Below, one piece after another: positions 1-56,504 of a stretch of 64,000 bases of DNA (positions are counted from its first letter, which is position 1; each line of letters opens with the position of its first letter). The notes under the pieces are model-generated. The model was given only the letters and a program-made list of their open reading frames with translations. It was not told the DNA's origin and made no database searches. Source of the DNA: Myxococcales bacterium (GTDB lineage Bacteria > Myxococcota_A > Polyangia > Palsa-1104 > JAEUJZ01); the NCBI GenBank assembly GCA_016794465.1, contig JAEUKA010000024.1, positions 7,511 to 71,510 on the forward strand. Direction: 5' to 3'. Made by a program: the position numbers and the translations under genes.

Positions 1-438
1 GTGGTCGGGCCGCAATAGAGCAGTCTCTCCGACACGGTGTGGTTCCCGTGCCGACCAAATGAGGACCAGCGCCAAGCACTCTGTCCGCTGCCTGTCCCGA
101 GTATCCACCTCTAGTTCAGGACTAGTCGTGGCTGATGGAGAGAGCTGATGCGCTGTAATATCGCGCCCGTGCTGACGCATCGTTGGGGCCTCGAAGCAAC
201 CATTGTGCCGAACGTGTTTTGTTAGGACTCGTCGAGGAGTCGTTCCAATTGAGCGCGCATTCACTTCGAGGCAGTGAGCGGCAACACAAGGCACTGTGCG
301 GTCCGGTGGTGCGCCAATACTCTCTCCTGGCGAAAGAAGGCGGGCGTGGGTACCAGGCTAGGATAGGCAATCCCTTCATACGAGCCTGAGCAACGGGAGA
401 AAGCATGCTGTCTAGCCAAAATAGTATCACGTTCGATT

Positions 439-485
439 GTGCGCGCAATGTGCGCACGCCGTGCGCACGTGGCACTCTGCGCACA
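439..485. promoter_or_regulatory. Three GTGCGCAC-type palindromes at 11-bp phasing (439, 450, 461) plus a fourth copy (478-485); further copy at 531-540. Candidate enhancer-binding-protein UAS
   Basis: Read directly: gtgcgcgc / gtgcgcac / gtgcgcac spaced exactly 11 bp apart, 80-130 bp upstream of a consensus sigma-54 element. Confidence 0.45.
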
Positions 486-567
486 GCGCGCCTAGCACAG
501 GGTGATATCGAGATGCGCGTCAGTCTCATTGTGCGCGCACAGAGCTGAACGCCTTGGTCCAAGGAGC

Positions 568-583
568 TGGCACCGGGCTTGCT
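568..583 (+). promoter_or_regulatory. Sigma-54 (-24/-12) promoter TGGCAC-N5-TTGCT
   Basis: tggcaccgggcttgct matches the RpoN consensus TGGCAC-N5-TTGCW perfectly; ~100 bp upstream of kinase ATG at 681. Confidence 0.55.
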
Positions 584-3088: not shown

Positions 3089-4540
3089 ATGGTCGCAGCA
3101 AAGGAGTCGTTTGTGGATAGACAAATTGGCCCGTACAAGATCGTTCGGTTGATCGGCAGCGGTGGGATGGGCTCCGTCTACGAAGCAATGAATACCCAGA
3201 TCGAACGCCGAGCTGCGATCAAAGTCTTGAGCAAGGACTTTCAGCAGGACGCAGAGTTTGTCCAGCGCTTCTTTAACGAAGCCCGTGCGGTCAACATCAT
3301 CAACCATCCAAGCGTTGTAACTGTTTATGACTTTGGCACCGCAGAGGATGGCTCGCCCTACATCGTGATGGAGTACTTGGAGGGAGAGACGCTTCGCCAG
3401 CGGATGAACAAGAGCGGACGAACGGACCCCGAGCGAGCGATGAAGACCATCCGGCAGGTAGCATCCGGTTTGGCAGCCGCGCACGCGAAAAAAATTGTGC
3501 ATCGTGACCTGAAGCCCGGAAACATTCTGCTGGTTCATGATTCCGACAACGCTGATGGAGAACGGCCCAAGATCCTCGATTTTGGCATCGCCAAGCTGGC
3601 GGCGGATCCAAGTGCAAAGGCGCTGACTCGTGTGGGCGTGTCGATGGGCACGCCAGCGTACATGTCTCCCGAGTTATGCAAGGACGCTAGAGATGTAACT
3701 GATCGAAGCGACGTCTACGCCCTGGGGCTGATTCTGTTCGAAATGCTGGCGGGCGAGCATCCATTCGCGAGTGCACTGAAGGCAGACAGCGCCATGATGG
3801 CATCACACATCGGCCAACCTGCGCCTTCTCTGGACAGCAAGGTTCCCGGAATAGGATCGGACCTTGTGGGTCTGGTCAATCGGATGCTCGCGAAGCAGCC
3901 GGATGCCCGACCGAGCGCAGCAGAAGTGGCCGCCACGCTGGGAAGGTTAGGAGGGTCGTCCACTGGACTTATGCAGGTGATCGACGCCGGCTCCATACCT
4001 CTGCCATTACACACCAATCGAGCATTGCCCACCGCGGACGCAGCATCGGACGTCGGTCTGTCTGCCGTACTCAAACCGCTGCAGGAAAACCGGGGTCTGG
4101 TCATTGGCGCCGGTGTCATGCTGCTCTTGGGAGTCATCGGGATTGTCGTGATTCTACGAGTGATACTCGCAGGTGCGCCATCCGTTCCCCAGCCGGTCCG
4201 CTGGAGCATTCAAAGTGAACCGCCAGGTGCCGATGTCCTGGATGCCACTGGGCAGATGCTGGGAAAGACTCCTTTTGTCCATCAACACGCTCGTGGAACC
4301 GCAGTCGAAATCTTGTCGATTCGCAAGGAAGGATTTAGCGAAGCACGAGTTCCCTGTGACAGCAGCAAAGACATCAATCAGATGGTGACACTCGTCGCAC
4401 AGGCAAAGCCGGCGGACAAGAAAGTGGAACCAGAGCCCGGTACCGATAGCCACACATCAACCGAGATCAAAAGGCCAAGTTCCCGGCGACACAAAAAGGA
4501 ACGTGCTTCGAAGAAGGAGAAAAAGTCTCGGTCTCACTAG
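3089..4540 (+). CDS. Ser/Thr protein kinase with C-terminal TM and extracytoplasmic domain
   Basis: IGSGGMGSVYEA, AIKVL, HRDLKPGN, DFG, PAYMSPE. Confidence 0.85.
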   Translation: MVAAKESFVDRQIGPYKIVRLIGSGGMGSVYEAMNTQIERRAAIKVLSKDFQQDAEFVQRFFNEARAVNIINHPSVVTVYDFGTAEDGSPYIVMEYLEGETLRQRMNKSGRTDPERAMKTIRQVASGLAAAHAKKIVHRDLKPGNILLVHDSDNADGERPKILDFGIAKLAADPSAKALTRVGVSMGTPAYMSPELCKDARDVTDRSDVYALGLILFEMLAGEHPFASALKADSAMMASHIGQPAPSLDSKVPGIGSDLVGLVNRMLAKQPDARPSAAEVAATLGRLGGSSTGLMQVIDAGSIPLPLHTNRALPTADAASDVGLSAVLKPLQENRGLVIGAGVMLLLGVIGIVVILRVILAGAPSVPQPVRWSIQSEPPGADVLDATGQMLGKTPFVHQHARGTAVEILSIRKEGFSEARVPCDSSKDINQMVTLVAQAKPADKKVEPEPGTDSHTSTEIKRPSSRRHKKERASKKEKKSRSH

Positions 4541-4601: not shown

Positions 4602-7600
4602 ATGGTACTTGGGTGGGCGGTAGCGCTGGACGGATCAGTTGGCACAGGTAGCGAGGCTCCGCGGTTGCCGAGCACTTGGCTCCTTGTCGTGCTGGTGCTC
4701 TTCTTCCTGCTGCTCATTGTAGCCGGCATCGGCTTGATCTATTTGATCTTTCGGCGGCGTGGCCAGACCGAGCGACCGACACAGGGCGGCCAGAATCAAG
4801 CGACCCCCAAGCGACTTCTGTCAATCTGGCGACAGTTCCTTGAGCCACTCCCAGTCAGTGTTCAGGTCGCCATTCAGGACTACGATCACTTCGTCGTCTT
4901 CGGTGATCCGGGAGTTGGAAAAAGTGCGCTGATCAGTCGACGTGTGGACTGGCAAGGGCAAGCCAGTCAGTTTCTGCCAAGCCATACGGCCGATCCGCTG
5001 CTTCAGATCTACCTGGGCAGTCGCACGATTGTCCAAGAGGTTTCCTCAACGCTTTTGCAGGCGGCCAATCGGGAAGCTCACGAGGCCTTTCGAAAGCTGT
5101 GGAAGAGATCACTGCCATCTGCGCTCTTGCCAACGGTTGTCATCGTTCTCAAGATCTCGACCCTGGCGAACAGTAGCCCAGATGTGCTGCGCCAGCAGGC
5201 CAAGCTGATTCGAGGAAAGATCAATCTGCTGGCAGAACTGTTCGGAGCGCCCATCCTGACTCGTTTGTGCCTGACCAATATGGAGCGCATCTCGGGTTAT
5301 TCCGAGTTCTCTCGGTTCCTCCACAAGAACCGGATCCCGCTGCTGCTCGATGCCAGCGGGGATGCCCAAAGTAGCCTTGGAAGCAGTCTTCAGTCCTATG
5401 AAAAGCATCTGCCACGGGCCCTGACCACCATGCCCGTTGGACCCTTTGAGGCTAGCATAGAGGTCCTAAACTCTGCTGAAGAGCTGATGACACCTGTGCG
5501 CAGTTTCATCGCCGCACTGGTCGAAGGCTCGGTGGCTTCGCTGCGCCCTGACGTCCAGAGTGTCTACTTCTTTTCACTCCCCGCCGATGAAGACGTTGGC
5601 AATCCCTTCGAGCCCGTGGTCAATAAAGGGGCGCGAGCACCCTCTCTGTTTCTACGTTGGCTGCGCTGGTTGGCTGGACTTGGCATTCGACCGATCCATG
5701 CACTCCTTAGTCTCTTGTTACTCGCAGTCGGAGTCGGCCCGATTTGGTATGTCAGTCACCGCCATGGCCAGAAGGTTCAGCGCGCTAGCACGATGGCCGG
5801 AGAGTTTGAACGAGCGGTGCGCCGTGCCCAAGAGTCACTCTCCAATCCGAGTGAATCAGACGTAGTGCGTACCAGTGAACGGGCAGCAGAGCAAGCGCTC
5901 TCGCTCGTTTTGGACGAAGAAACTCGCCTGCGCCCTTTGAAACTGCTTCTGCTTCGTGAGAAAAATGAAGCGCGGCAGCACTTTGTGGACGGACTGCGAC
6001 AAGGGTATCTGCGCCCTGTGCTGGAAGCAGGTGTCCGTCAACGAGCACGCGACAAGATCCTCTACAGCCTTGCTACGCTTTACGCCGCGCAAGACAACGC
6101 GCTGGGAACGCTGGTGAAGACGCAGCGCACCGACTTTGCAACGACTCTGGGTCTGCCAGCAGATGTACTGAGTGCATACGTTGAAAATAGCCCGCACGCC
6201 TGGACCGACAAGGCACTGCTGCTGCTTCCTCCTTTGCCATCCGAGTCAGCGCACTGGCCGACTAGCGATCTCCGTCCTTGGCAAGAGTTTGTGCAGACAA
6301 TTGCTCGTGCCATTCCACAGCCTTCGATTGCAGGAGATCAGCTGGAGCGGCTACGCAAGCAGGCAGAACACCTCCGCGAGACGATAGAGCGAGTGCGCAA
6401 GGCGCACGTGATGCGCCGCGTTTATCAGATGCTGGCAGAAGAGACGCCCATCGACATGAACAAGCTGTTTGGTGGAGAGGTCGGTGTGCTCACCCCCGAT
6501 CCGTGGCTCACCGACAACATGGCCAACCTGGAGCTCCTGCTCAAGCTGATCCGTGACAGCTCGGCCCAGTCAGGTCGCCACGACCACCTGAGTCTGTATC
6601 AGCTACTCCGTTGGGTGAATGCACTCGGCGCCAGCAAGGAAGCGCTTGCGCATGGGCCTGGCATTTCTCCGCTGTTCGAAAATGACCTGGTACACTTCGC
6701 ATTCCCGAGCAGCAAGGTGTACGAGATCAGCGAGCGGGGCTGGCTCGATCTGCTCTTGCGCAGCCGCAAGCGCTGGCTCCTGTCGCATCAGATCAGCAAC
6801 GTTCGGCTCCACGACAAACACTCCCATCGACGTCGCTGCTGCGATTGTGTGTCGGAAAGTCGCCGGAAGCGACGGCACTGTGTGCGATGCGAACGGACAG
6901 AAGATGACTCTGAACGGAAGTCATGTTTGCCCCCACGGACGGAGAGTCGCAGAGTGGATTTGCCTCCCTTTGGTCCTGAAGAGCTGCGGCCCAGACTCGC
7001 CAACCTGATGACCAAGGGGGAGACCCCCAACGAGCACCTGGGAGACGAGTACAACCGCGCGGTCTTCGATAATGAAGTTCTACCACTGGTACGTGAGCTA
7101 CGTAAGGCCGTGGCAGAGAGCAAGGCGTTGGGTCCGGAAGAAAAGATCCGGCTGACTCGGCTCGTACGATCGGAAATCGAAGGATATGCGCGGAAGTACT
7201 GCAGTGGGCTCATGCGTTACTACCTGAGCTACCACTTTCACGCGCACGACCAAGGGAGTCCGGTCACTTCTCTGCATTCGGCACTGCTGGATCTGACCAA
7301 GCCCGGCTCTCGCTTTGTATCGCACCTGTCGAGCGTTGCAGAAAACGCAGCACTTGCTGGGCTCGATGATCCATATCTGAAGCCACTGGCAGAGTGTTTG
7401 GCCGAGTTCCGCCCACTCATCAAAGTGGTGAATGCGGATCTGCTCAAGCGGAAGAGTGCGAAGCCAAGTGGAGGGGTGCTGGAGCCAAAAGAAAACAAGA
7501 GCTCAGGCTCAGACAGTCAAGATCGCACCCCAGGGAAGGAGGCCGCAGCAGGTCAAGGGACGGGCAGTTCTCCGGACAAGGAGACCACAGGACGGAAGGA

Positions 7601-8651
7601 CTCTCTTGACCCCCCTGCTCCATCTGAAGACGATCAAAACAAAGGTCTGGATCCCTACCTTGAATCGATTGCGAAGCTGGCCACTGAGCTGGATTCAAAC
7701 TGGGGACCGGCTCCCGGCAAAGGAACAGACAAAGCGACCGAAAAAAGATCAAGCCTTCCAGACCAGCTCGGTCCACTGGGCAAGAGCGCTCTGCTCATGG
7801 CCCGAGAAGACAGCGCAGGAGAGCTCTCTCCTCGCCAGAGTGCGGAAGTCTTCCTCGACAAAACGGGACTGATCGGGTCCATGCGTCGTCCCTTCATCGA
7901 ACCATTCGATGCAGTGTTCAAACGGGGTTCACAGGAAGTAGAGAGTGCGCTGGCCCAGCACTGGGAAAAAGAAACGGTGGCCATGGTAACTCCTCTGTTT
8001 GAACGCTTCCCATTCAATCAAGCGGCAGAAAGAGAAGTCGCACCGGCCGAGCTAGATCTGATCAGCGAGTCCAGCGGAGCCTTCTTTGCGGATGTCAGAT
8101 CGTTTTACGACTACGCCATCGCGCAACAGGGAGGAAACTATGTAAGTCGACGAGGAGCACTGGGCTCGTTTGCGCTTCCCAAGGATCTGCTGCCAACCGT
8201 CAATCGGGTCGCCAAGTTGGCACGATTGTTGTTTGACGGAAAAGGAGCACGCCAGCCGCTGCGTCTGTCTGTTCGAGGTGTACCAGGGAAGAGAGCGGGT
8301 GATGGAAAATCGGTGCAGCCGACCATGGGTTTTTTACAACTGGGGAAGACATCTGTCTTCGGTTTTAACCAGCGCGCAACTGGAGAACAGATCTCCATCG
8401 ACTGGTGGAATCAGGGCGTGGCAGTGGTCGGTATCGAAAGCACTGCAGGTCGGTCTGGACGAAGACACACCCAGACAATCGAAGTGGCGGACTCTTCCTG
8501 GAGCTTATTTCGACTCCTGCAAAAGAGCACGATTGAGGGCGACGGAGAGAGCACCTGGCGAATCAACGACGACGGGGCAGGAGAGGTACAGGTGATTCGC
8601 TTTGCGATTCAGCCCGACCCCTGGAGTCTGTTTCGGATCACGACACGCTGA
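4602..8651 (+). CDS. tssM: T6SS membrane complex protein TssM (IcmF-like)
   Basis: 1,349 aa, N-terminal TM helix then Walker A GDPGVGKSALI, additional TM hairpin, large periplasmic C-terminal region; stop overlaps tssJ start (TGATG). Confidence 0.7.
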   Translation: MVLGWAVALDGSVGTGSEAPRLPSTWLLVVLVLFFLLLIVAGIGLIYLIFRRRGQTERPTQGGQNQATPKRLLSIWRQFLEPLPVSVQVAIQDYDHFVVFGDPGVGKSALISRRVDWQGQASQFLPSHTADPLLQIYLGSRTIVQEVSSTLLQAANREAHEAFRKLWKRSLPSALLPTVVIVLKISTLANSSPDVLRQQAKLIRGKINLLAELFGAPILTRLCLTNMERISGYSEFSRFLHKNRIPLLLDASGDAQSSLGSSLQSYEKHLPRALTTMPVGPFEASIEVLNSAEELMTPVRSFIAALVEGSVASLRPDVQSVYFFSLPADEDVGNPFEPVVNKGARAPSLFLRWLRWLAGLGIRPIHALLSLLLLAVGVGPIWYVSHRHGQKVQRASTMAGEFERAVRRAQESLSNPSESDVVRTSERAAEQALSLVLDEETRLRPLKLLLLREKNEARQHFVDGLRQGYLRPVLEAGVRQRARDKILYSLATLYAAQDNALGTLVKTQRTDFATTLGLPADVLSAYVENSPHAWTDKALLLLPPLPSESAHWPTSDLRPWQEFVQTIARAIPQPSIAGDQLERLRKQAEHLRETIERVRKAHVMRRVYQMLAEETPIDMNKLFGGEVGVLTPDPWLTDNMANLELLLKLIRDSSAQSGRHDHLSLYQLLRWVNALGASKEALAHGPGISPLFENDLVHFAFPSSKVYEISERGWLDLLLRSRKRWLLSHQISNVRLHDKHSHRRRCCDCVSESRRKRRHCVRCERTEDDSERKSCLPPRTESRRVDLPPFGPEELRPRLANLMTKGETPNEHLGDEYNRAVFDNEVLPLVRELRKAVAESKALGPEEKIRLTRLVRSEIEGYARKYCSGLMRYYLSYHFHAHDQGSPVTSLHSALLDLTKPGSRFVSHLSSVAENAALAGLDDPYLKPLAECLAEFRPLIKVVNADLLKRKSAKPSGGVLEPKENKSSGSDSQDRTPGKEAAAGQGTGSSPDKETTGRKDSLDPPAPSEDDQNKGLDPYLESIAKLATELDSNWGPAPGKGTDKATEKRSSLPDQLGPLGKSALLMAREDSAGELSPRQSAEVFLDKTGLIGSMRRPFIEPFDAVFKRGSQEVESALAQHWEKETVAMVTPLFERFPFNQAAEREVAPAELDLISESSGAFFADVRSFYDYAIAQQGGNYVSRRGALGSFALPKDLLPTVNRVAKLARLLFDGKGARQPLRLSVRGVPGKRAGDGKSVQPTMGFLQLGKTSVFGFNQRATGEQISIDWWNQGVAVVGIESTAGRSGRRHTQTIEVADSSWSLFRLLQKSTIEGDGESTWRINDDGAGEVQVIRFAIQPDPWSLFRITTR

Positions 8652-9127
8652 TGAGCCACGCTACACGCTCAAACATAGCAGACCGGCAGCAAGGAAGCCT
8701 CTGGCTCGTGGTCATGCTTGGTCTCCTTGTGTGTGCGCAGACTGGCTGCACGACCTGGCGATTCTTTATTAATCTCCGCGGTATGGAGGACTCCAATCAA
8801 GGACGCCCCCTGCAGGTTTTGGTCCGGAGTGTGCAAGCAGAGAGCTTTCGGACCGAGACCTATGGTGAACTCGCCCAGCTGCTCATAAAACCCGATCCCA
8901 GCGTGCTCAGAGTCGTGACGGTAGAACCCAGTCAAAAGCGTCGACTCTGGATCAGGGCGCCGAGCAACAAGCCGGTGGCGCTGTACTTCCTCTTTAGTGC
9001 GACCACCGGCAGTTGGAAGATGCTCTTGCCCCCACCACTGCCCTGGTCTGTGTCGGTGCCGCTCGGTCGAAACGGTGTGCTGGTTCCTGACGTGAAGGAA
9101 TGTCGGCTCGGTCGAGGTCTGCCATGA
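8651..9127 (+). CDS. tssJ: T6SS outer-membrane lipoprotein TssJ
   Basis: 158 aa, signal peptide with Cys (LLVCAQTGC), RPLQVLVRSVQ...F block resembling TssJ core; immediately downstream of tssM. Confidence 0.55.
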   Translation: MSHATRSNIADRQQGSLWLVVMLGLLVCAQTGCTTWRFFINLRGMEDSNQGRPLQVLVRSVQAESFRTETYGELAQLLIKPDPSVLRVVTVEPSQKRRLWIRAPSNKPVALYFLFSATTGSWKMLLPPPLPWSVSVPLGRNGVLVPDVKECRLGRGLP

Positions 9128-9168
9128 CTATTCCTCAACCAATTCACAGAACCAGCGGGTCCTGCAAC

Positions 9169-9198
9169 GTGCGCACAGCGTGCGCAGATTGTGCGCCC
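9169..9198. promoter_or_regulatory. Three GTGCGCA(C)-type half-palindromes at 11-bp phasing (9169, 9180, 9191); candidate UAS for tssBC promoter
   Basis: cgtgcgcacag cgtgcgcagat tgtgcgcccac; same motif and phasing as 439-468. Confidence 0.4.
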
Positions 9199-9307
9199 AC
9201 ACAACTGAAATACAACATGCTCAATCTCCTCGACGGAGTTCCACAGAGTTTTGCCGCCGTGGTTGTATCGCTGTGGTCAGCATCACTGCAAGCGACCGCC
9301 CGGCGGA

Positions 9308-9322
9308 TGGCATGTTCGCTGC
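9308..9322 (+). promoter_or_regulatory. Sigma-54-like -24/-12 element TGGCAT-N5-CTGC upstream of tssB
   Basis: GG and GC correctly spaced (tggcatgttcgctgc); ~110 bp downstream of the palindrome triplet, 44 bp upstream of GTG start with GGAGG RBS. Confidence 0.35.
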
Positions 9323-9365
9323 TAGAGAGCGTAGCCCCAAACCAGGACCCCCATAGGAGGAAACC

Positions 9366-9911
9366 GTGAAGTCCATTCAACAACTGATCCCGCGTTCTCG
9401 CGTCAATTTGAGTTACCACACCATGGTCGAAGGGCAGCTTAGGGAAGTGGAATTGCCCTTCCGCGTGATCGTTCTGGCCGACCTGTCTCATGGATCGTCC
9501 ACCGACCGCGAGCTGGACATGGAGACGCGTCGCCTGCGAAATCTCGACGGAAAGAACATCGATGAGTTGATGGCCAATATGAAGATCACGCTGAGCCTCA
9601 AAGCAAAGAACTTCATCGATCCCGAAGCCGAGCAGCTCCCAGTCGAGGTTCCCATCAAGGACCGTAAGTCGTTTAATCCTGCGGAGGTCGCAAACGCGGT
9701 GCCGCAGATTCGCGCCCTGCTGCTGCTGCGCAAGCTGCTGCTTGAGATGCAAGCTCAGGTTGATAACCGCAAGGAAGTGCGCAACCTCATGCAGCAGGTG
9801 TTCGCCAACAAGGAAGAGCTTGCTCAGCTCCGCAAGGAACTGGAACCGTACGCCGGTTATCGCCTGCCAGCTCGTAAGGAGCTCGCCCCAGCGAGCGCAC
9901 CAGTCACCTAA
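9366..9911 (+). CDS. tssB: T6SS contractile sheath small subunit TssB (VipA/ImpB)
   Basis: 181 aa; LPFRVIVLADLS motif typical of TssB; GTG start with RBS. Confidence 0.85.
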   Translation: MKSIQQLIPRSRVNLSYHTMVEGQLREVELPFRVIVLADLSHGSSTDRELDMETRRLRNLDGKNIDELMANMKITLSLKAKNFIDPEAEQLPVEVPIKDRKSFNPAEVANAVPQIRALLLLRKLLLEMQAQVDNRKEVRNLMQQVFANKEELAQLRKELEPYAGYRLPARKELAPASAPVT

Positions 9912-9982: not shown

Positions 9983-11470
9983 ATGGCTGAAACCCAGATT
10001 GCTAAGGAGCCGCGCATCTTGAGTCGGCTCCTCGAAGCCGCTCAGCTTGACAAGCAAGTCAAGAGCCTGACCCCCATGATCAAGGACCGCTTTGTCGCCA
10101 GCCGTGAAGACGTGTCGGACGAGGAAAGACTGCTGTCCGGTCTCGCGGCGATCCTCTACAACCTGGATGAGTCCCAGGAGAAGTACGAGAAGGGCAAGGT
10201 CCTCGACATCGTACGCCGCATTGATCAGACGATCAATGATCAGCTAAATGACATCTTGCATCATCCTACGTTTCAGGATCTTGAAGCGACCTGGCGCGGC
10301 ATCAACGGCTTGGTAGAAAATACGAACTTCGATTCAAACATCCAAATTGCGCTCCTTGATGTCAGCAAAGAAGAGCTCCATCAGGACTTCGACTCGAACT
10401 CGACTGACGTCTTCAGTGGGGCGCTGTTTAGCAAGGTGTACAAGACAGAGTACGATCAGTACGGCGGCAAGCCCTATGGCTGCATGATCGGCCTGTACGA
10501 GTTTAGCACCAACCCATCGGATCTATTCTGGCTGCGCAACATGTCTAAGGTAGCCGCAGCTGCCCACGCTCCCTTTGTCACCGCGGCGAATGCAGCATTC
10601 TTTGGCTGTAAATCGATTGAGGAGGTCGAGGCGATTCGGGACCTCGACGGTGTATTTAACCAGCCGCAGTTCGGACAATGGCAAGCACTTCGCGACACGC
10701 CAGAGGCATCCTACGTCGGACTTGCATTCCCGCGCTATGTGGTGCGACTGCCCTGGAACCCAGAGACAAATCAGAGCCCAGGCCTCCAGTTCACAGAGGT
10801 GACCACGGGTCAGCGTGACAAATATCTGTGGGGCAACTCTGCACTGCTCCTTGGACGCAACCTGATCCGCTCGTTCGAGCAGTCTGGATGGTGTCAGTAC
10901 ATTCGCGGCCCAGCGGGTGGCGGTCAGATCAAGGGACTCCCTGTGGACACCTTCAACGTCCGGGGCGAGCAGGAAGTCCGGATTCCGGTGGAGATGTATA
11001 TTCCGGACTACCGCGAGCTAGAGTTTGCACGAAACGGCATCAGCTCGTTGGTCCATCGCAAGGGAACGGCGGAAGCCGTGTTCTTCAGCGTTCCTGCCAT
11101 TAAGGCGCCGAAGGAATTCCGCGACCCGAAGGACACCGAGAACTCTCAACTGGTGGCCAACCTGGCCTACACGTTCTCTGTCTCGCGCATCGCTCACTAC
11201 TTCAAGAGCATCGTCCGCGACAACATTGGTGACAACTCCGATGCGAAGTCGCTCAAGGAGCAGCTGACAGCGTGGCTGGAGCAGTACATCACCAAGTCGG
11301 TGAGTCCCAATGATGCGACGATGCGTCGCTTCCCCTTCAAGGCTGCAGAGGTTCAGGTCGAGCCAGTGCCAGGACGAATCGGATACTACGACTGCAAGGT
11401 CGCCATCCTGCCGCACAGTCTGTTCGAAGGGATGGACATCGAGTTGCGGCTCGATTCGCGCCTCGGTTAA
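9983..11470 (+). CDS. tssC: T6SS contractile sheath large subunit TssC (VipB/ImpC)
   Basis: 495 aa; conserved TssC blocks (DLFWLRNMSKVAAAAHAPF, RYVVRLPW, ARNGIS); AAGGAG RBS. Confidence 0.9.
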   Translation: MAETQIAKEPRILSRLLEAAQLDKQVKSLTPMIKDRFVASREDVSDEERLLSGLAAILYNLDESQEKYEKGKVLDIVRRIDQTINDQLNDILHHPTFQDLEATWRGINGLVENTNFDSNIQIALLDVSKEELHQDFDSNSTDVFSGALFSKVYKTEYDQYGGKPYGCMIGLYEFSTNPSDLFWLRNMSKVAAAAHAPFVTAANAAFFGCKSIEEVEAIRDLDGVFNQPQFGQWQALRDTPEASYVGLAFPRYVVRLPWNPETNQSPGLQFTEVTTGQRDKYLWGNSALLLGRNLIRSFEQSGWCQYIRGPAGGGQIKGLPVDTFNVRGEQEVRIPVEMYIPDYRELEFARNGISSLVHRKGTAEAVFFSVPAIKAPKEFRDPKDTENSQLVANLAYTFSVSRIAHYFKSIVRDNIGDNSDAKSLKEQLTAWLEQYITKSVSPNDATMRRFPFKAAEVQVEPVPGRIGYYDCKVAILPHSLFEGMDIELRLDSRLG

Positions 11471-13420: not shown

Positions 13421-13807
13421 ATGTCGTTCCTCAACCGCTTTCTCCCAGAAAAACCTCAAGACGACGAGTTCCGGAGTGTCGTCCGGAATCTCCTGTATCT
13501 ACTCAACTCACGCCGCGGATTCGGATCACTTTTATGCAGCTTCGGAGCTGCCGACTACCTTCGCGACTTGAGTGGACGGACGACGGCACAAACACTGCTT
13601 CGTGAAATCACAGATACCATTCAGATCTACGAACCGCGGCTGCGGGTCCTCAGTCTGAAGACGGTAGGACGTGACAGTGCGTTACGACTCTTTATCGAGC
13701 TGCGCGGGACACTCCTCCTAAACTACTGGGGCGTTCCCTGTCGGCTTCTCATCCTTTTCCACATGCCAACGGGCGCCGTGACCATTGAGGGGAGCGATGG
13801 ATCGTAA
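13421..13807 (+). CDS. tssE: T6SS baseplate protein TssE (gp25-like)
   Basis: 128 aa; VRNLLYLLNSRRG gp25/TssE-like block. Confidence 0.7.
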   Translation: MSFLNRFLPEKPQDDEFRSVVRNLLYLLNSRRGFGSLLCSFGAADYLRDLSGRTTAQTLLREITDTIQIYEPRLRVLSLKTVGRDSALRLFIELRGTLLLNYWGVPCRLLILFHMPTGAVTIEGSDGS

Positions 13808-16800
13808 ATCGTTCGGGAAGGAGCCACCAACGCTTGATGAGGAGCTAGCCGGTGAGACCCCACGCTTTCACGAAAAGCTGGGATTTGTCTTCGAGATTGT
13901 CCAGGTCGTTCCGCTGATGGTCGCGCCTGGTCCGCCTCCGCCTCCGGTCGTTCTGACCGAGATGGACAACATTGAGCTGGCGACCAAGCCCCCGAACCGA
14001 CCTCCCCCTGGGGCCGTGCAGACCGGGAGTCCCATCATGCCGCCTTTCCTCGGCCAGCTCCCGCCGATCAAGATAGAGGGCCACGACATCACGTCACTGT
14101 CCGTAGACATGGCTACACACGGCTTCACCGGCCGGATGCGATTCCGGGTCTCGGAGACCAAGCTTCTCGGTGATGTGAAGGACAAGGACAAAGTCGCGAA
14201 GGCCTTTCGTAGCCAAAACATCTTGATGTTCAAGCTGTGCATACGGCCCGAGCATAGTGATCTCCGCGGACTGGCACCGCTTACTCCCGTGATGGTTCCG
14301 CAGGTCGTGACGCAGATACCGGTGCCCGTAGTCGTTCCGGTCAATGAGAGCATTCCACTGGAGCTGCAGCTACTGCAGCAGCTCCCCGCAGAGCTAGCGC
14401 TCGAACTGCAACAGCAGCGGACGCTGATCCAGCAACAGCTCCTGGTGGTGCAACAGCAGCTCCTGGTGAATCAGCAAGAGCGGATGGCGATTATGCAGGA
14501 GTCGCACCCTCCCGCAGGTTCAGTTGAAACTCCGCAGAACCTGCAGATACTCGCAAAGCAGCGCCAACTGGATCTGGCTGCCAATGCCAAGAAGCAGCAG
14601 GAGCTGATCAAGCAGCAGCAAAGATACATTGAGGAGCTGTCAAGCCTGGCGAATCCCCCAAACAACAGCGCACTGCTTGCGGCTCTCCAAAACATCGCTC
14701 CACCAGGCGTACTCCCCCCCAAGCTCGATCCGGTCATCGCGCCGATTCCGGCCATCGTAGGGACTCCGACGCTGCTGGAGCCTGGAATCTCTCCCAATGG
14801 TCCTCTGGTGCCGATTGAGATGCTGCTGACGGGAGTCATCACTTCTCATACGGTTTCCGAACATACCAGCTATGAGGCCTCCGACATCATCGTTAGTTTT
14901 CGGGAATACTGCATCGAATTTGGTGACCCTGCCCAGGCGCTATGGAAGGAACACTTTCCGATCGCACTCTACACGAACAGCTCAGTTTCGGACGTCATCA
15001 AGAAGAACGCCAATCTGCTCATCAATATCAAGGTCAAGAGCAGCCAGCTATCTCAGACTCAGGACCAGATCTTCCTCAGTCTGAACAAGCAGAATCGCCA
15101 AGCGGAACGTGCCAGCTTCTATGACTGGCTCATCTGGCGTCTGGACCAGACCGACCACACCTTGAGTTACGACTACTCCCAGAACATTTATCAAGTGTTC
15201 GAACGACCGAAGCGACCAAAGCCTTTTCAAGTCTTTGCCGCTGACATTGCCAAGATCATCACGACGCGTCCGCTGGGTCGCTTTTATCAAGAGACGCTGA
15301 TGAACGACAGCGCCCGAATCGCAACCACCCAGCCCATTCTCAACCTGCTGGCGCTGTCGCCTTTGCGTCAGGATCGGTGGTTTCACACACCGACACCACT
15401 GGAGTTCGCGACAGAGTATGCCAAGCGGTTTGCCAGCTTCAAGCAGCCATCACCTTCATTTGTACTATACTTTAAGCGATTCCCATCGCGTCCCTTCCCG
15501 CCTGGAGTAGGAATCGACTTTCATCTCGATCCGATCGATTTTCCCAATCATAAATTCGTCATTCCTAAGGATGCGAAGAAGACCAACCGCGTCACCCGGA
15601 TGCAGCTCCAGATTGAGACGACTGAGTCCGACGTCCTGCCACGATTCAAGGGAAGAAGCACCGGAATGTTCCGTTGCTCTCTTGGCGTTCACCTTCAATC
15701 CGGCCGCGATGCGGAGCCACGTCTACCAACGTATACCCAGCCTAGCTATCCGATGGAAGTCGAGGGCATCGTCTACACCATGATTGGAATGCCGGGCACG
15801 CAGGTCTGGGAAAACCAGACCGACCTTCTCACGGGCCAACAGTACTACGTCATTCAGCTTCCGGTGTTTGGTTGTCAGCAGGTCAAAACGCCGTTCGTCC
15901 CGAATCAACAGCCTGGGCAGTTCTTTTTTCCCGCATACCGCAAGGAACGCGTTCTCGTCCAGCTGTACTACGATCGCTCCGAGCTGGCTCGCTATCTAGA
16001 CTGGCGTCCTATGAATACGCTGCCCAGTCAGATTCAGGGCAACCAGCTCATGCTGGGACAGGATTTCACAAATGGGGCCAAACACACCCTCATATACGGA
16101 GGGGATGTCCCAGAATACATCATTCAGCGGCAGCGTTATAGCAGTGTCCAGTTTATTCGATTTTATCAGAGCGGAATCGAACAGAAGTCGGTTGTTCTGA
16201 CTCCCAAGGTTGACCTAGCGATTCAGCGCGCCACCTTGGCAGCGAGTCAGGCGCTTGAGATCCAGTGTGCGGGGGGAGCAGGAGCCATCGCTGGAGGAGG
16301 CGGCGGCGGTGGCGGTGGAAGCGGTGGCGGCGCGAAGGCCGAAGCGAAGTCAACGACCCGGGCTCGAGCAAAGCGAGTGAGCGGGAAGGTACAAGCCAAA
16401 ACGTCCGTACATGCGACAGCCGCCGTAGCAGCGGTCTCAACTGACTTCACCCACTCGAAGCAGATTCCGAAACCCCTGCACCGAACGCCAAGCAAGGCGA
16501 TGCCTCTGGTACAAAACGTTGGCGCTGCTCGGACCATGATGCGGCACGCTGAACAAGCCCAGGCCGAGTCGATGGGCGTCGACGTTGCAGTTGCGGAGCG
16601 TCCCAGAGATGCCGGTCCCAAGGATCTTCCTGGGCGGAAGTCTCATTCGGCGGGCAAGCACTCGCATGCTGATCGCGGCGCGGGCAAAAAGCCACCACCT
16701 CACAAGACCAAGGGAAGAGGAGGAGGCGGCGGCGGTGGCGGCAACCGGGAAGAGTTACCGCCTGCTCCCAGACCGGGTACGCCTACCGAAGGACACCCCG

Positions 16801-19800
16801 AGCAGCCGATGAACTGTCGCTTCGGCATGGACTCTGGTAGTGGCACCGCACTGGAGATGGAGAGTCCAGCTGGTGACGCAAAGCACGCCGTCCTGATCGG
16901 AAAGCAAGGCGTCACGATCGAAACCGAGGTCGCTGGGGCCAAATCGATTTTCGAGCAGCACGGGGACGCCATCTCGATTCGTTGCCGAGAATTTACCATC
17001 GACGCGGACAATATTCGCGTCCGCTCCCAGACCCACTCCAGCTATCAAAGCCTTGGGCACATGACGCTGTCGAGTCTCTCGAACATGACCGTGCAGACTC
17101 CGTCCAGTCTCAATCTCACGGCGATGAACGGAGTGACGCTCAATGCGCTGACTGTACTTATCAATGCACTCCGAACGATTCGCTTGCTCGGACTGACGGG
17201 CGGAATTGGGACATTTGCAGCAGGGCCGGGAGTGCATTCCTTCGGAGCAGAGATCAGCTCGACAGGTCTGCAAAATACAATGACCGGGGTCACGACAAAC
17301 CTGCACGGGGCAACGGTCAAGATCGGTCCGCCTCCCATGAGCTCAGGCCCGGCTGCCAGCTCTGGTTCTGACAGCGAATCAAGCGCTGGCTCGGTTGCAA
17401 ACTCCAGCTTCGACTCAAAGACTGAACAGGGCACTGACAAGGCCTCAGGGTCGCCTGCCAGTCCGCAGGCACCAAGCAATGGCGACCCGGAAACAGACAG
17501 CAAACAGCATGCGGCAGAGGTCTTCCCTTTCGATCCAGAACATGGCTTTGCGGGTCTTGGGGGTCGGATTCACCATCGCAAACACAAGCATCCCCACGGA
17601 CACAAGCATCATCACAAGCGGAATCACGGAGACCAACACCGTCCAGAGGAAGAGCACACACAGTCAACCCTGCCGATCTCACCTTTTGACAAGCCCGGAG
17701 GAGTTCCCAATTCGAGCGTCGATCCGACCGATGAGTCAGTGCCCACTACCGCAGAGGGGTCGGCACAACCAGATCACCGCGCGCAGCACCATGAGAGTTC
17801 GGGACACAGCTCAGAGTCGACGTCCCTCGGTCAAACAAGCGAAGAACCTCCGTCATCCGATGCTTCGATGGACAGTCAGGACTTAAAGCCAAAAGGACCG
17901 CCATCTGCTCGGAATTTTGTACCGTCTGGACAGCGTGATGCCCTCACCCCAATGCCTCCCAGACCGCATGAACCGCCTCGTCCTGTGCGCACAGATCCAC
18001 AAGATCCGGAGCAGACCCCGGCTCTCAAGCAGACTGTATCGGACTCCACCAGCGCTGTAGAGCAAGCGGCCGCCCGCATCGGAGCCTCTCTGTTTGGTCC
18101 TGTTGACCGGGATGGACCTGTGGCTCGTCAAAAGCCAGGCAGTCTGCGTGCACTTGCTACTGAGATCGCAAAAATCGAGGCGATTGTGTCTGCCTGTTCT
18201 TCGGGTCCGAGCAGTTCCTCCACCATTTCCTCTGCTGTGAAGCCACCCTCTGCCAGACCTTCCGACCAGGATGCAACGAAGGGTGCAAATCAGAATCCGC
18301 GAGCTGAGTACACGTCAACAAAGCCGCCAAGCCAGGTCGCAGGTTCCGACCATACGTCAGTCCGCTACTCCGTTCGCACCCCACCCGAGGATGGAACCAA
18401 TCCGCTTCAGGAGGCACCGCATCACCACGGCAGTTCGCGCATTCCTGGGGCAACGCCCCCTGCGGGTCATTCCAATAGTCATCATCGCCACTCGAAGGCG
18501 CATCATCAGCACTCGAAGGCGCATCATCAGAAGGCACACAAAATCGCTCACGACCCAAAACCCCAAACCGCAGCCACAGATCCACAGGTCTCGGCACCTG
18601 AGACAGCACAAGCGCCAACAGCTCCGGCAAGGTCATCTGAGAATCAAGTCAACGCGGGATTGCTACAAGCAGCGGGGTCTCCATCCGCGGCGCTCAGACC
18701 CACCGAGAGTGGCGATGCAGGCGCTGGTGGCAATCACGACCGAGGACTCTTGCAGCGCGGTGCCTCTGCCCAGAGCCCATTCGAAGTATTCCGCAGATTG
18801 ATCTCTCTCTTTTCTCACATGACGTGGGACGGACAAACACCGCTGGGAATGCTGCATACATTTCAATCTGCAGCGGCTGCCGCACCCCGTCCCCTCGCGG
18901 AGATGCACGAGCTACTGCTCGCATTCCAACAGAAATCTGATCATGCCGCCTGGGCTCCTAGCGTGGATTCGGAAGTTCCCCCAGAACAGCTTTTGAGTTC
19001 TCTCCAGCAATATCTGGAGGAGCTCGGACGGAATCTCCCTGCGCATGGTGCAGCAACTCCCCCAGCAGCAGCTTCGACAGCTTCGTCGTCGAATCCAGAC
19101 CGGCAGCCCGAGGACTCTGAGCCCAAACCAACGAAGCCACAGCAGCCGCAGAGCACTGAAGTCCCAGGTCTACAAGCCGCCATGGTGTCAGACCTTCTTT
19201 CCTCTCTGCAATCAGACAGTCTGGATGAACGAATCAACCGGGATCCCTCGCTGATTCCAACCGTGCTGCAAGCAACGCTGGCTGCACAAGCCGGCGCACT
19301 TACACCTGAATTGGGCGCTCCGCTGCTCGTTCTGGCGGAGTCAATCCTCGAATCACGAACCGATGTGGCGGTGCTGCTGGCATTGATGGGAACCGCTGCC
19401 CAAGCCGGGCTACTGCCGAGTGAAATCGCACCGCATGCAATCGCCGGTCAGCAACTGGCGGTACAGAGTAATCTGGATCTTGCAGAGCTGCGCGCTCAAG
19501 TTACCCAGGCCGATACTCCCGGTTCGACCCGAGATACCAAGCCCTCGGATGGTACGAACACAAATCAAAGGTACCAACCGCTGATTGATTTGGCGCTGGC
19601 AGCTGCAGACAATGGCTTCCTACCGAGATCCTCTGCTCTGACGATTGCCGAGAATCCGGGCAGCGGGCTGCTGCGCTTGCCAGAGCTGCTGGCTGTTCGG
19701 GAGGTGTTGCAGTATGCCGCACGCATTGTGGCTGGAAAGCCTCTTCCAGAACCACCAGCCGGTCCCCTCGTTCAGATTCGTAGAAACACGCTCATATCGA

Positions 19801-47554: not shown

Positions 47555-50128
47555 ATGCGAGAAGATCACGGCAAAGATGGACCTGGGCCCGGGGCAAGCT
47601 CGTCGCAGTCATCGACGGATGACGCGCTGGCCGACCTGTCAGCGCTCGCGACGCCGCTGTATGCGGGACGGTACGAGCTGCAAGAGCTGCTCGGGGTCGG
47701 CGCCAGTGGCAGCGTCTATCGGGTGCGCGATGTCGAGCTGGATGAGTTTTTGGCGCTGAAGGTCTTGCGCAAAGAGCTGGTGGGAGACAAGCAGACGATT
47801 GCGCTGTTTCGCAATGAAGTGCGGCTGGCGCGGCGGGTAACCAGTCGCAACGTGGCGCGGGTCTACGACATTGGCGAATATGAGGGCGAAAAGTATCTGA
47901 CGATGGAGCTGATCGAAGGAGAGTCGCTGACTCGCCGGATGACATCCACCGTCGATGGAACACGGCGACCGCTGCCACTACTAGAGATTGCCGAGCTGAT
48001 CGAACAGGTCTGTGCCGGACTCCTCGCTGCGCATCAAAGTGGCGTTGTTCATTGCGATTTAAAGCCAGATAACCTGCTCATTGCCAAAGATGGGCGAGTC
48101 GTCATTACCGATTTTGGGATTGCGCGCGCGCTGCAGCAGAGTGCGCCGGCCAAGCGTGATCCGCGACGGTTTGATGGCACGCCGATGTATGTCGCTCCCG
48201 AGCAAGTGGGCGGAGAGCAGATCGATGCCCGGGCGGATCTGTACTCCCTTGGCGCGGTGATCTATGAGCTGCTGACTGGGAAGCCACCGTTTTCGGGGGA
48301 CTCTCTGCTCGCGATTTTGGCGGCGCGGGTGCTCAGTCCTCCGCCCGATCCGCGCCAGGTCCGTCCCGAGCTGCCAGCGGCGGTTGCAGAGATCGTGCTT
48401 CGCTGTCTGGCGGTACATCCCAAAGAGCGATTCCAGAGCGCAAGCGAGCTAGCCACTGCGCTGCGACAAGCGGTGACAAGTGCCGCCAACGAGCCGACGC
48501 TGAAGCGGTCCGGAAGGAGTCGACAGAGTGACAGAGAAGCGGATGGACAGACTGCTGGTAAGGAGTCCGTAGCCGCACACTCCCAAGTCAGACAGAGTGA
48601 CGTAGGAAGAGCCGCAGAGACTCCGAACGTGGACTCTGTTCAGGGCTATGAATCGGCTCCGGAGTCGACTCCGCTGACAGTGAATGCGAGTCGGACTGTG
48701 GCTGTGATTCCTCTGCTCAATCAGGCTGGTGCAGACGACGAATACTTGGTCTACGGAGTCACACAAGAGCTGATCGATCGGCTGGGTACCCTGCGGACGC
48801 TGCGGGTGTTTGGTCACAGCACGACCGCTTCACCGCAGTTTCGCAACAAAGAGCCTCTGGCCATCGCCAAAGAGCTTGGTGCAGAGCTTGTCCTGACGGG
48901 CTCCCTTTCACGCAGCGGAGATCGACTTCGACTGACGGTGAGCGTGGTTTCGACCAAGGAGCGGAGTCCGCTGTTTTCGGATCAGATCGACTGCTCGCCG
49001 GCCTCTGCGCTCTCGGCTTGTGACACGCTGGTGGCAGCGATTGCGAGAGCCCTGCGGATCGGCCCAACCGGGCAAGACGGACAAGACGGACGGAGCGATC
49101 GAAAAGAGCCGCCGAGCGGAGTCCCAGCAGAGTCCGATACCGTCGAGCTGTATCTGCGTGCGCGCTATCTATATGGTCGCAGCGATGAAGCCAGCTTGAC
49201 CCGCAGTGTGGGTCTGTTTGAGCGTGTGATTGCGCGTGCCCCTGCGGACCCAACGCTGCGGATGAGCTATGCCCTGGCCCTGTCTCGCTTGTGGTTTTAT
49301 GGCGATCCGGGTGCAGCGGAAAAGGCCCTGCCAGCGGCGGAAGCAGTGGTCGCGCAGCTGCCCCTTCACGGAGAGTCCTATCTTGCGCTGGCCGGAGTCC
49401 GCTTTCAGGGTGCCGATCTGCTCGGTGCGGTGCAGGCACTTGCGAAGGCGCTGGCGCTGTCTCCGGATCTTGCGGATGCCCATGAGCTGCTGGGACGAAT
49501 CTTGGTCGAGACAGGACCAATTCGCGACGGACTGATGCGGCTGATTCGCGCACGGAGTCTCGATCCCGGACTGTTCCGTACCCTTGCGGAGCAGGCTCGA
49601 ACGCATGCCCTGCTGGGGGACTTTGAGCGTGCGCACAAGCTGCTGGCCGATCCGGCGCTGGACAGTGGATCGTTTGCGATTCAGTGGATTTTGAGGGGGC
49701 GACTCTGTCTGTGGAATCGGGATCGCAAGCGCGCAGAGGAGTATCTGTCTCATCCAGAGATCACGCAGGGAAAGTATCCACGTGCCAAACTCCTTCTGCA
49801 GGTAGCGGCCGGTCTGCAGCAAATTGATCCGAAGGAAGCACTGAGCGCAGGTCTTGCTTCCGATCGCAGCAGTCCGCGTGGACATACGTTTTTGTTCCAG
49901 ATGCACGCCGAGCTACAGAGTGCCTATGGACAGTATGAACAGGCGGTGCGGAGTGTGGCGCGCAGCGTCGATGCCGGGCTCGCGGATCTGACCTGGATCG
50001 AGCGCTGTCCGCTGCTCCTTCCCATGGCTTCCGATCCACGCATGAGTGCCTTGCGGCGAATTGTCTATGCGCGGGCGTATGCGATTCGCGAAGCGCTGCG
50101 AGCGGTGCCTCCGGTGCTTACGCAATAG
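47555..50128 (+). CDS. Ser/Thr kinase (non-RD: HCDLKPDN) fused to TPR-rich C-terminal domain
   Basis: GVGASGSVYRV, ALKVL, VVHCDLKPDN, DFG, PMYVAPE; C-terminal TPR-like repeats. Confidence 0.8.
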   Translation: MREDHGKDGPGPGASSSQSSTDDALADLSALATPLYAGRYELQELLGVGASGSVYRVRDVELDEFLALKVLRKELVGDKQTIALFRNEVRLARRVTSRNVARVYDIGEYEGEKYLTMELIEGESLTRRMTSTVDGTRRPLPLLEIAELIEQVCAGLLAAHQSGVVHCDLKPDNLLIAKDGRVVITDFGIARALQQSAPAKRDPRRFDGTPMYVAPEQVGGEQIDARADLYSLGAVIYELLTGKPPFSGDSLLAILAARVLSPPPDPRQVRPELPAAVAEIVLRCLAVHPKERFQSASELATALRQAVTSAANEPTLKRSGRSRQSDREADGQTAGKESVAAHSQVRQSDVGRAAETPNVDSVQGYESAPESTPLTVNASRTVAVIPLLNQAGADDEYLVYGVTQELIDRLGTLRTLRVFGHSTTASPQFRNKEPLAIAKELGAELVLTGSLSRSGDRLRLTVSVVSTKERSPLFSDQIDCSPASALSACDTLVAAIARALRIGPTGQDGQDGRSDRKEPPSGVPAESDTVELYLRARYLYGRSDEASLTRSVGLFERVIARAPADPTLRMSYALALSRLWFYGDPGAAEKALPAAEAVVAQLPLHGESYLALAGVRFQGADLLGAVQALAKALALSPDLADAHELLGRILVETGPIRDGLMRLIRARSLDPGLFRTLAEQARTHALLGDFERAHKLLADPALDSGSFAIQWILRGRLCLWNRDRKRAEEYLSHPEITQGKYPRAKLLLQVAAGLQQIDPKEALSAGLASDRSSPRGHTFLFQMHAELQSAYGQYEQAVRSVARSVDAGLADLTWIERCPLLLPMASDPRMSALRRIVYARAYAIREALRAVPPVLTQ

Positions 50129-55204: not shown

Positions 55205-55277
55205 GGGGCTGTAGCTCAACTGGTAGAGCGCTTGAATGGCATTCAAGAGGTAACGAGTTCGACCCTCGTCAGCTCCA
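55205..55277 (+). tRNA. tRNA-Ala (anticodon GGC)
   Basis: Cloverleaf folded by hand: G3:U70 Ala identity pair, A73 discriminator, anticodon loop AUGGCAU, TTCGA T-loop; 73 nt, no encoded CCA. Confidence 0.85.
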
Positions 55278-55284
55278 CATCAAA

Positions 55285-55313
55285 CCCCGTCGGTGAAGAC
55301 CGATGGGGTTTTT
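55285..55313 (+). terminator. Rho-independent terminator downstream of tRNA-Ala
   Basis: ccccgtcggt-gaag-accgatgggg stem-loop followed by TTTTT. Confidence 0.7.
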
Positions 55314-56496: not shown

Positions 56497-56504
56497 GATT
56501 CCCC

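Follow-up and report, generated by a model that had tools for sequence, protein, structure and literature searches.

A predicted sigma-54 promoter and an 11-bp-phased palindrome array before the first operon of a myxobacterial type VI secretion cluster, beside the gene of an FHA/AAA+/HTH protein

The stretch of DNA analysed here, 64,000 nucleotides of a Myxococcales bacterium contig (hereafter the window), carries a type VI secretion system (T6SS) cluster preceded by an intergenic segment at 437–583, which an earlier note had read as a sigma-54 (RpoN) promoter with a palindrome array upstream. Comparison with related loci leads us to regard this segment as, in all probability, a control region composed of a sigma-54 promoter and an array of activator sites, one of three such regions that would switch on the T6SS cluster. 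The operon that it precedes is the first operon of that cluster. The obvious cognate activator, judged from gene neighbourhood and domain make-up, is the protein with an FHA fold, an AAA+ domain and a predicted helix-turn-helix (HTH) domain that is encoded by the adjacent gene. The proposed sigma-54 promoter with the upstream-site geometry of an enhancer-binding protein is supported by invariant alignment columns, by a second promoter-array pair and by the neighbouring gene with Sigma54_activat and HTH_8 domains. The earlier reading missed a divergent third sigma-54-like promoter, the identity of the activator and the absence from it of the GAFTGA motif, the last being the one real reason for caution.

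The predicted −24/−12 element of the first operon, here called P_STK, lies on the plus strand at 568–583 (TGGCACCGGGCTTGCT, TGGCAC-CGGGC-TTGCT). It is indeed the perfect element originally described, matching all 11 specified positions, and places the predicted transcription start near 594. There is a single full match to TGGCAC-N5-TTGCT in the window; 200 dinucleotide-preserving shuffles of the window, which served as the chance baseline, gave 0.03 each on average. Lowering the threshold to at least 10 of 11 positions gives three matches in the 64 kb, two of which lie back to back, and divergent, in one intergenic region. Upstream of P_STK, three 8-bp palindromic units form a distal array at 439–468, with GTGCGCGC at 439–446 and GTGCGCAC at 450–457 and again at 461–468; the start-to-start steps are 11 and 11 bp, exactly as first reported. 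Two further copies had been noted at 478 and 531, and both exist, although the former is an imperfect unit (7 of 8 positions, CTGCGCAC) at 477–484, 16 bp past the third unit, and the latter belongs to a perfect 12-bp palindrome, TGTGCGCGCACA, at 530–541. None of these palindromes was assigned a strand.

The arrangement of the units is what stands out from chance. An exact triplet GTGCGC-N5-GTGCGC-N5-GTGCGC is present twice in the window (439–466 and 9169–9196) and in none of the 200 shuffles, and allowing up to three mismatches yields five overlapping matches, all at the 439 and 9169 sites, compared with 0.32 in the shuffles. The 8-mer GTGCGCAC itself is not over-represented (5 observed, 2.7 expected), nor is TGCGCRC (47 observed, 57 expected); with counts so near chance, the arrays are not a dispersed repeat within the window. 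Tandem Repeats Finder did not call them in the window; rather than simple tandem repeats, they are sites in phase whose spacers vary. Scans of the window with Rfam and for tRNA genes returned only a tRNA-Ala at 55205, and so no known RNA element explains the region. A consensus scan, the one means used here, found no sigma-70-like −35/−10 promoter in 1–800 or 8900–9500, and no terminator was found in the intergenic region of either the kinase operon or tssB. A minus-strand open reading frame (ORF) at 122–562, which spans the promoter and array region, was rejected as a coding feature. So was TTG 579 as a start of the downstream gene; it falls inside the −12 element.

Orthologous loci from about 20 metagenomic Myxococcota contigs (given L numbers below) were used for comparison. 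A MAFFT alignment of seven orthologous P_STK regions contains 46 invariant columns, distributed as 21 of the 30 columns in the three units, 2 in the fourth unit, 14 of 16 in the −24/−12 element and 9 in the remaining approximately 180; counted with the fourth unit, 11 of 183 columns are invariant outside the triplet and the element. The P_STK element matches at 11 of 11 positions in all eight orthologous loci. In the fourth unit, the GCGCAC core is kept in relatives, the two invariant columns being G81 and C82, with starts at −92, −90 or −93 in six loci. Conservation within the array is highest in the outer units, which lie 22 bp from each other.

Geometry was compared by counting from the first G of the promoter element's GG to the start of each unit. 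The kinase promoter of the window has units at −130, −119, −108, −92 and −38, the last being the start in the 530–541 palindrome. Close equivalents are found in L032, L037 and L025 (−128, −117, −106 and −90, with −38 in L037 and L025 only) and in L022 (−129, −118, −107 and −93). This spacing, with starts at −128 to −130, −117 to −119, −106 to −108 and −90 to −93, is common to five of the eight loci. Units in L021 and L034 start at −123, −112, −101, −85 and −38 as a result of a 7-bp deletion, and those in L004 at −109, −98 (degenerate), −87 and −73. The deletion in these two loci, both closely related to the window, lies between the fourth unit and the proximal palindrome (L021 9560–9781, L034 919–1140). 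An equivalent of the proximal palindrome is present in L021, L034, L037 and L025 and absent from L022, L032 and L004. The arrays are thus at classical enhancer distance.

The second array lies upstream of tssB, where the triplet had been said to recur; it does so with GTGCGCAC, GTGCGCAG and GTGCGCCC starting at 9169, 9180 and 9191 (9169–9198, no strand assigned), the second of just two exact matches in the window. It is located 168–197 bp upstream of the tssB start (GTG 9366). A sigma-54-like element, TGGCAT-GTTCG-CTGCT, follows on the plus strand at 9308–9323 (P_tssB, 9 of 11 positions, retaining GG-N10-GC; predicted transcription start near 9334). The distance from the last GTGCGC to the −24/−12 element is 111 bp at tssB compared with 101 bp at the kinase operon. 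The form TGGCAY-N5-NTGCT is conserved at tssB in L002, L021, L022, L039, L042 and L004, and an alignment of the tssB region from five loci has 18 of 30 columns invariant in the units, 11 of 16 in the promoter element and 12 elsewhere. Unit starts are −140, −129 and −118 in the window, L042 and L021, within 1 bp of these in L002, −139, −128 and −117 in L022, and −143, −132 and −121 plus one at −25 in L004. Small called ORFs run across array and promoter regions in two relatives (83 aa, L002 2106–2357; 92 aa, L004 2494–2772); these calls over regulatory DNA are probably spurious.

The third element faces the opposite way. On the minus strand at 195–210, CGGCAC-AATGG-TTGCT matches 10 of 11 positions and points toward the activator gene, with a predicted transcription start near 184. 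The block is conserved in L021, L022, L025, L004, L032 and L037 as CGGCAY-N5-TTGCW.

More distant loci from Myxococcales metagenome-assembled genomes (L009–L016 and L018), whose activator is 52–56% identical, keep the layout of activator gene, promoter, 11-bp-period array, promoter and tssB with a different repeat unit. There the activator gene is directly divergent from tssB, and a GG-N10-GC element was scored 60–115 bp upstream of tssB; a TGGCAC-N5-CTGCT-like element facing the activator gene was read by eye. GC-rich repeats are located between the two promoters, TGCGCGCAC in L009, L013 and L016 and CTGCTCGCGCA in L011, L012, L014 and L015. Unlike the arrays of the window, those of L011 and L012 are tandem arrays with an 11-bp period (2.5–4.4 copies by Tandem Repeats Finder). 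To judge from these repeats, the 11-bp register is kept where the sequence of the unit has changed.

We also scanned JGI metagenome contigs with the pattern GTGCGC-N7-GCGC-N5-GNGCGC-N{85,115}-TGGCAY-N6-TGC. This returned 16 loci, eight of which are kinase or tssB promoters of orthologous T6SS loci. The other eight are on unrelated contigs of 62–72% G+C that lack both homologues of the query proteins and units resembling GTGCGCAC, and their number is approximately that estimated by hand for chance. The pattern scan of these contigs therefore found no further regulon members. The motif had initially been thought open to dismissal if it proved a ubiquitous repeat; within the window it is not one, and the metagenome scan gave the same two promoters plus chance-level matches.

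The activator gene occupies the minus strand at 1–108 and exits the left edge of the window, which holds about the first 36 codons. The likely start is GTG 108–106; gene callers in relatives placed it at an upstream ATG equivalent to 180–178. The translation of 1–108, ..VDTRDRQRTECLALVLIWSAREPHRVGETALLRPDH, aligns with the N-termini of L004/P0121, P0123 and P0126, and the encoded N-terminus, ..TECLALVLIWSAREPHRVGETALLRPDH, is homologous to that of the L004 activator. No Sigma54_activat domain was found among the scanned ORFs of the window, and in view of the homologous N-terminus the activator gene simply continues past the window edge. L004, with 80% TssC identity, has at this position a 513-aa Sigma54_activat gene divergent from the kinase operon; its HTH_8 match is near threshold (21.5 bits, just under the 22-bit cut-off). 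PF00158 scores 124 bits in the full-length homologue, compared with a cut-off of 20.2 (E = 5e-36). Many activator-family members have a precomputed PF02954 match, and the three C-terminal helices are modelled with high confidence. A gene with both Sigma54_activat and HTH_8 is divergent from the operon in L004, L021, L022–24, L025/26, L029, L031, L032, L034 and L037. In L021, L022–24, L025/26, L034 and L042 the full order is the activator gene and, divergently, STK1-TPR-STK2-TssM-like-IglE-like-tssB-tssC; L034 and L042 are approximately 97–98% identical to the window at the protein level, the identity that also holds for the contigs WBZX01007272 and WBZX01005294. A genome-contig search with the L004 activator recovered only relatives at 50–57% identity.

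Comparison of the repeat units with the HTH sequences disclosed that the two differ together across three locus families. Units of the GTGCGCAC type accompany the recognition segment LN/DISRDQLNRLI, TGCGCGCA accompanies LGMSRHQLNRMI, and CTGCTCGCGCA accompanies LGISRHQLNRII; the corresponding HTH segments are ISRDQLNRLI, MSRHQLNRMI and ISRHQLNRII. Such tracking suggests, without amounting to proof, that the neighbouring protein reads the units.

An AlphaFold model of the activator has a confidence (pLDDT) of 90. Its AAA+ core superposes on NtrC1, ZraR and FleQ with a TM-score of approximately 0.83 and a root-mean-square deviation of 2–3 Å, the Foldseek TM-score being that to 3m0e, 1ny6 and 4lzz. 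Walker A (GESGSGKE) and Walker B (LFLDEIG) are intact, as is the arginine-rich segment RYELKRRFQRE. The N-terminal 185 residues have no Pfam match even at E ≤ 10. They are modelled (pLDDT 81) as a beta-sandwich, the fold that in FHA domains has 11 strands, and all 50 listed Foldseek matches in the PDB are FHA or FHA-like folds (GarA/OdhI, FhaA, CT664 and others), the bacterial FHA matches having target TM-scores of 0.75–0.79. Profile matches to the FHA domains of GarA are weak (E approximately 0.5–1.5). The phosphothreonine pocket of FHA domains is lined by GR, SxxH and NG residues. Residues conserved in at least 90% of the N-terminal domains are G42-R43, S110-R111-x-Q113 and N136-G137, with the His replaced by Gln.

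Taken together, these features suggest the following course of events. Sigma-54 RNA polymerase would bind at 568–583 and form a closed complex that it could not open unaided. The predicted Fis-type HTH of the activator would bind the units at 439, 450, 461 and 477, and perhaps the palindrome at 530–541. Units 11 bp apart would present approximately the same face of the DNA, which could let subunits bind next to one another and so seed the active ring. The AAA+ ring would then reach the polymerase, approximately 100–130 bp downstream, by DNA looping, and ATP hydrolysis would drive formation of the open complex. The same protein would also act at the tssB array and promoter (9169–9323) and on its own sigma-54-type promoter (195–210, minus strand), which could provide autoregulation with positive feedback, the array serving both directions. 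The three promoters and one activator would form one regulon. Because the activator has an FHA-fold sensor and the regulated operon begins with two Ser/Thr kinases, the likely input is threonine phosphorylation by STK1 and STK2, which the FHA fold may read.

Several observations weigh against this scheme, and the most serious concerns the loop that should contact sigma-54. An ungapped alignment to ZraR (1ojl) places NFPNPG in the GAFTGA columns of the activator, and GAFTGA is absent. GAFTGA is regarded as essential for sigma-54 contact, and homologues without it (TyrR, DhaR, HupR) work with sigma-70 (PMC3162934). Other points concern the DNA: the middle unit is the least conserved of the three and often retains only its GCGC core, the L004 array lies 21 bp nearer the promoter, and the 7-bp deletion displaces the distal array of L021 and L034, with respect to the promoter, by some two-thirds of a helical turn. 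Such a displacement shows that array-promoter phasing is not rigid and speaks against a strict face-of-helix dependence. No IHF consensus was found between array and promoter at either site; a single match with one mismatch at 368–380 is at chance level. Finally, the loci of distant members of the activator family (L043–L045, L007, L008 and L017) lack T6SS genes and GTGCGCAC arrays, and no sigma-54-like element was seen upstream of a neighbouring gene there; the link to T6SS and to sigma-54 promoters therefore cannot be generalised to the whole family. Among these, the activator paralogue of L007, not linked to a T6SS, has the direct repeat TGTACCGAATTGCTC twice in its upstream region (9650–9700), and that of L008, likewise not T6SS-linked, has GGTACAC-type repeats (3320–3420); neither has a sigma-54-like element there.

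These observations bear on an alternative that we consider unlikely, namely that the AAA+/HTH protein binds the palindromes without being a sigma-54 activator. It would then resemble TyrR, HupR or VpsR, acting as a repressor, an anti-activator or a sigma-70-type regulator, and a canonical enhancer-binding protein encoded elsewhere would serve the −24/−12 elements, possibly competing or cooperating at the array. NFPNPG replaces GAFTGA throughout the family, and Francke et al. treat homologues deviating from GAFTGA as independent of sigma-54 and class them as non-functional for it (PMC3162934). The distant members that lack a nearby sigma-54-like promoter fit this alternative, as does the palindrome at 530–541, where a protein bound at −38 could interfere with the polymerase. 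However, N(K/R)(K/R)NFPNPGM is present in 13 of 13 locus homologues, and this loop, or one close to it, turned up in 106 of the 120 top database matches, down to approximately 41% identity, the other 14 being fragments or pattern misses. Strict conservation of an alternative loop speaks for a contact that is itself conserved and not for decay, and the Walker motifs, the RYELKRRFQRE segment and the enhancer-binding-protein AAA+ fold are all intact. Moreover, this AAA+/HTH gene, placed between the sigma-54-type promoters or beside them, is the sole regulator gene found next to the promoters in every T6SS-linked locus, and no second regulator gene was found among the scanned ORFs of the window. 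The supplement of Francke et al. lists variants such as GAFPGA in Sorangium, and Sorangium cellulosum, which also belongs to the Polyangia, has sigma-54 (PMC3162934). The string NFPN is absent from that supplement, and NFPNPG appears in no searchable paper.

It is less probable still that an unrelated transcription factor, for example a global T6SS repressor, has its operator in the palindromes, with the sigma-54 promoter activated from solution or from other sites. Short GC-rich palindromes are a common type of operator, and the middle and proximal units are variably conserved. This explanation has difficulty with the joint change of repeat unit and recognition-helix segment among locus families, with the array always adjoining the activator gene, and with its distance of approximately 100–140 bp from the −24 element, upstream of it, where enhancers classically lie (PMC7910581). 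The notion of a chance product of GC-rich sequence, or of a dispersed repeat of the REP or MITE kind, with no regulatory role, is effectively refuted: the window is 60% G+C and GTGCGCAC alone is not over-represented, yet the exact triplet never arose in the shuffles, the only two such arrays in 64 kb are intergenic and each have a sigma-54-type element downstream, both are conserved at orthologous positions where the flanks diverge, and the metagenome scan met the architecture only at T6SS loci apart from chance-level matches.

With sigma-54 control by the adjacent protein preferred, a broader proposal can be put forward, on which we are evenly divided. It holds that a family of FHA/AAA+/HTH proteins, widespread in Myxococcota, drives sigma-54 open complexes through N(K/R)(K/R)NFPNPGM in place of GAFTGA, and that the member described here couples Ser/Thr-kinase signalling directly to T6SS transcription through three promoters that share 11-bp-phased arrays, with positive feedback. 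The kind of promoter and enhancer is already known; what is new is the myxobacterial host, the FHA sensor and the non-GAFTGA L1 loop. If the NFPNPG protein is an activator, surveys that discard homologues lacking GAFTGA miss a whole class. GAFTGA would then not be universal for sigma-54 activation, and the structural rules for engaging sigma-54 region I would need widening.

T6SS clusters governed by RpoN together with a cluster-encoded enhancer-binding protein have known precedents (PMC8855297, PMC10482370). VasH in Vibrio and Aeromonas and Sfa2 of the Pseudomonas H2-T6SS are such proteins (Bernard et al. 2011 as cited in PMC3804575; PMC8855297; PMC10482370; PMC13584744). As in those systems, T6SS operons have sigma-54-type promoters in front of them and the activator is encoded within the cluster or beside it. 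The same logic is expected, with one dedicated activator turning on the apparatus. Control of this sort is textbook knowledge in Vibrio and Pseudomonas, and to that extent the promoter-plus-enhancer reading is an ordinary one. The differences are in the host, gamma-proteobacteria there and a myxobacterium here, and in the first operon, which here starts with Hanks-type kinases. Sfa2 and Sfa3 have the canonical GAFTGA and Sfa2 an N-terminal GAF domain (PMC8855297), in contrast to the FHA fold and NFPNPG of the present protein. The latter also appears to be autoregulated from a divergent sigma-54-type promoter. For the T6SS of uncultured Polyangia-like myxobacteria, the three promoters and one activator provide a regulon map that can be tested.

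The palindromic units resemble sites of better-known activators. Nla28 of Myxococcus xanthus recognises tandem 8-bp palindromic half-sites, CT(C/G)CG(C/G)AG, and sites for enhancer-binding proteins are typically 80–150 bp upstream of sigma-54 promoters (PMC7910581). The Nla28 consensus includes CTGCGCAG, which shares the TGCGCA core with GTGCGCAC, and both are tandem 8-bp palindromic sites. Here, three to five units stand in a fixed 11-bp register with G...C in place of C...G as flanking bases, and an FHA-type protein is the activator, whereas Nla28 is a response regulator with a receiver domain. At glnAp2, NtrC binds several dyad sites on one helix face approximately 100–150 bp upstream of the −24/−12 element, with weaker sites nearer the promoter. 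The TGCGCA-N5-TGCGCA layout of the window repeats the 6-N5-6 layout of the NtrC site TGCACC-N5-GGTGCA, although each unit here is itself palindromic, such that neighbours are readable as direct or inverted repeats, and the strong units follow each other at 22 bp instead of 32 bp. FHA-domain enhancer-binding proteins of M. xanthus are reportedly the subject of work by Jelsbak, Givskov and Kaiser in 2005, going by its title as cited in PMC12288465. As in the present protein, an FHA domain would there be joined to a sigma-54 activator module in a myxobacterium, and this implies that Ser/Thr kinases feed into transcription by sigma-54.

In the Pseudomonas H1-T6SS, PpkA, PppA and Fha1 form a pathway in which threonine phosphorylation controls assembly post-translationally (PMC10482370). 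Both there and here a Hanks kinase and an FHA domain are tied to the T6SS cluster. In the present system the FHA domain is part of a transcription activator, and a kinase signal would act on transcription. The FHA sensor, encoded beside two co-regulated Hanks kinases, hints at an equivalent of the PpkA/Fha1 pathway at the level of transcription.

The operon directly downstream of P_STK had been called a kinase-TPR operon, and kinase and TPR-like genes are present, although it also includes TssM-like and IglE-like T6SS genes and its start is GTG 642. The genes from STK1 to tssC are on the plus strand. STK1, a Hanks-type Ser/Thr kinase (642–2030, Pkinase E = 8e-46; 462 aa in L021/L022), is the first gene, with a ribosome-binding site GAGGA at 632–636; this block of GAGGA and GTG is conserved in relatives, and ATG 614, also considered as a start, is out of frame. 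It is followed by a TPR-like protein (2032–2997) with weak TPR_2 and TPR_19 matches, which has a counterpart of 313–321 aa in the same place in L021 and L022. The N-terminus of the TPR-like protein, MSGISHLLTGCIAGG (2032–2091), contains a lipobox-like LTGC, and from this motif the protein may be a lipoprotein. The second Hanks-type kinase, STK2 (3089–4540, Pkinase E = 1e-53), is 62% identical to the L004 kinase, the only kinase that L004 has at this position. A 1349-aa membrane-complex protein resembling TssM and IcmF (4602–8651, IcmF-related_N) and an IglE-like lipoprotein (8651–9127, IglE_N E = 1e-21) complete the operon. After a gap of 238 bp, tssB (9366–9911, T6SS_VipA E = 1e-36) and tssC (9983–11470, VipB E = 2.5e-108) are the first genes of the sheath and baseplate operon. 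Among named relatives, a Polyangia metagenome-assembled genome is closest in TssC, with 70% identity.

Beyond tssC, the order is a 200-aa ORF, tssK, a gp25/TssE-like gene and a 2632-aa ORF, then genes recognised by Pfam as TssF, DotU/TssL and TssG-like. The 2632-aa ORF (13785–21683) follows the gp25/TssE-like gene, has no Pfam domain and, like the 200-aa ORF, is conserved in related loci. ORFs without a family are also found in the T6SS region at 11557, 24483, 26739, 28969 and 29408, and a 574-aa protein in the same region (4602–31813) matches GrpE weakly. Neither ClpV nor Hcp nor VgrG was recognised by Pfam in 4602–31813. With its IglE_N lipoprotein, its 1349-aa IcmF-N-like protein and its ORFs without a family, the make-up of this T6SS region is unusual.

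A further phased array is located past the T6SS cluster. At 36094–36186, GCTCGCGAGCAG, TGTGCGCGCTG and TGCTCGCGCAGC form a GC-rich array, followed approximately 45 bp on by AGGCAC-AGGGA-TTGCA (9 of 11 positions), 68 bp upstream of a 454-aa ORF (36254–37618) with no Pfam match. Similar units are found in the more distant T6SS loci, in their CTGCTCGCGCA arrays, and the array at 36094–36186 may be the target of a paralogous activator. Directly upstream of it lies a sharply AT-rich segment (35930–36040), which comes after a serine recombinase gene (31865–33043, minus strand) and FG-GAP/TIG and TPR genes; it has the look of a boundary, of an island or of an insertion, where the T6SS cluster ends.

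Toward the right end of the window, 55205–63536 contains the tRNA-Ala gene (55205–55278) and, immediately after it, a tyrosine integrase and two XRE-type HTH genes, then an AAA_25/DnaB-like ATPase, a CHC2 zinc-finger primase-like gene and a Gp49-like gene, and is probably a mobile element integrated at the tRNA. Outside the T6SS cluster, 39551–40384, 47555–50128 and 51842–53230 encode a PP2C phosphatase and two additional Hanks-type kinases, of which one has TPR repeats; these proteins may also take part in the same phosphothreonine signalling.

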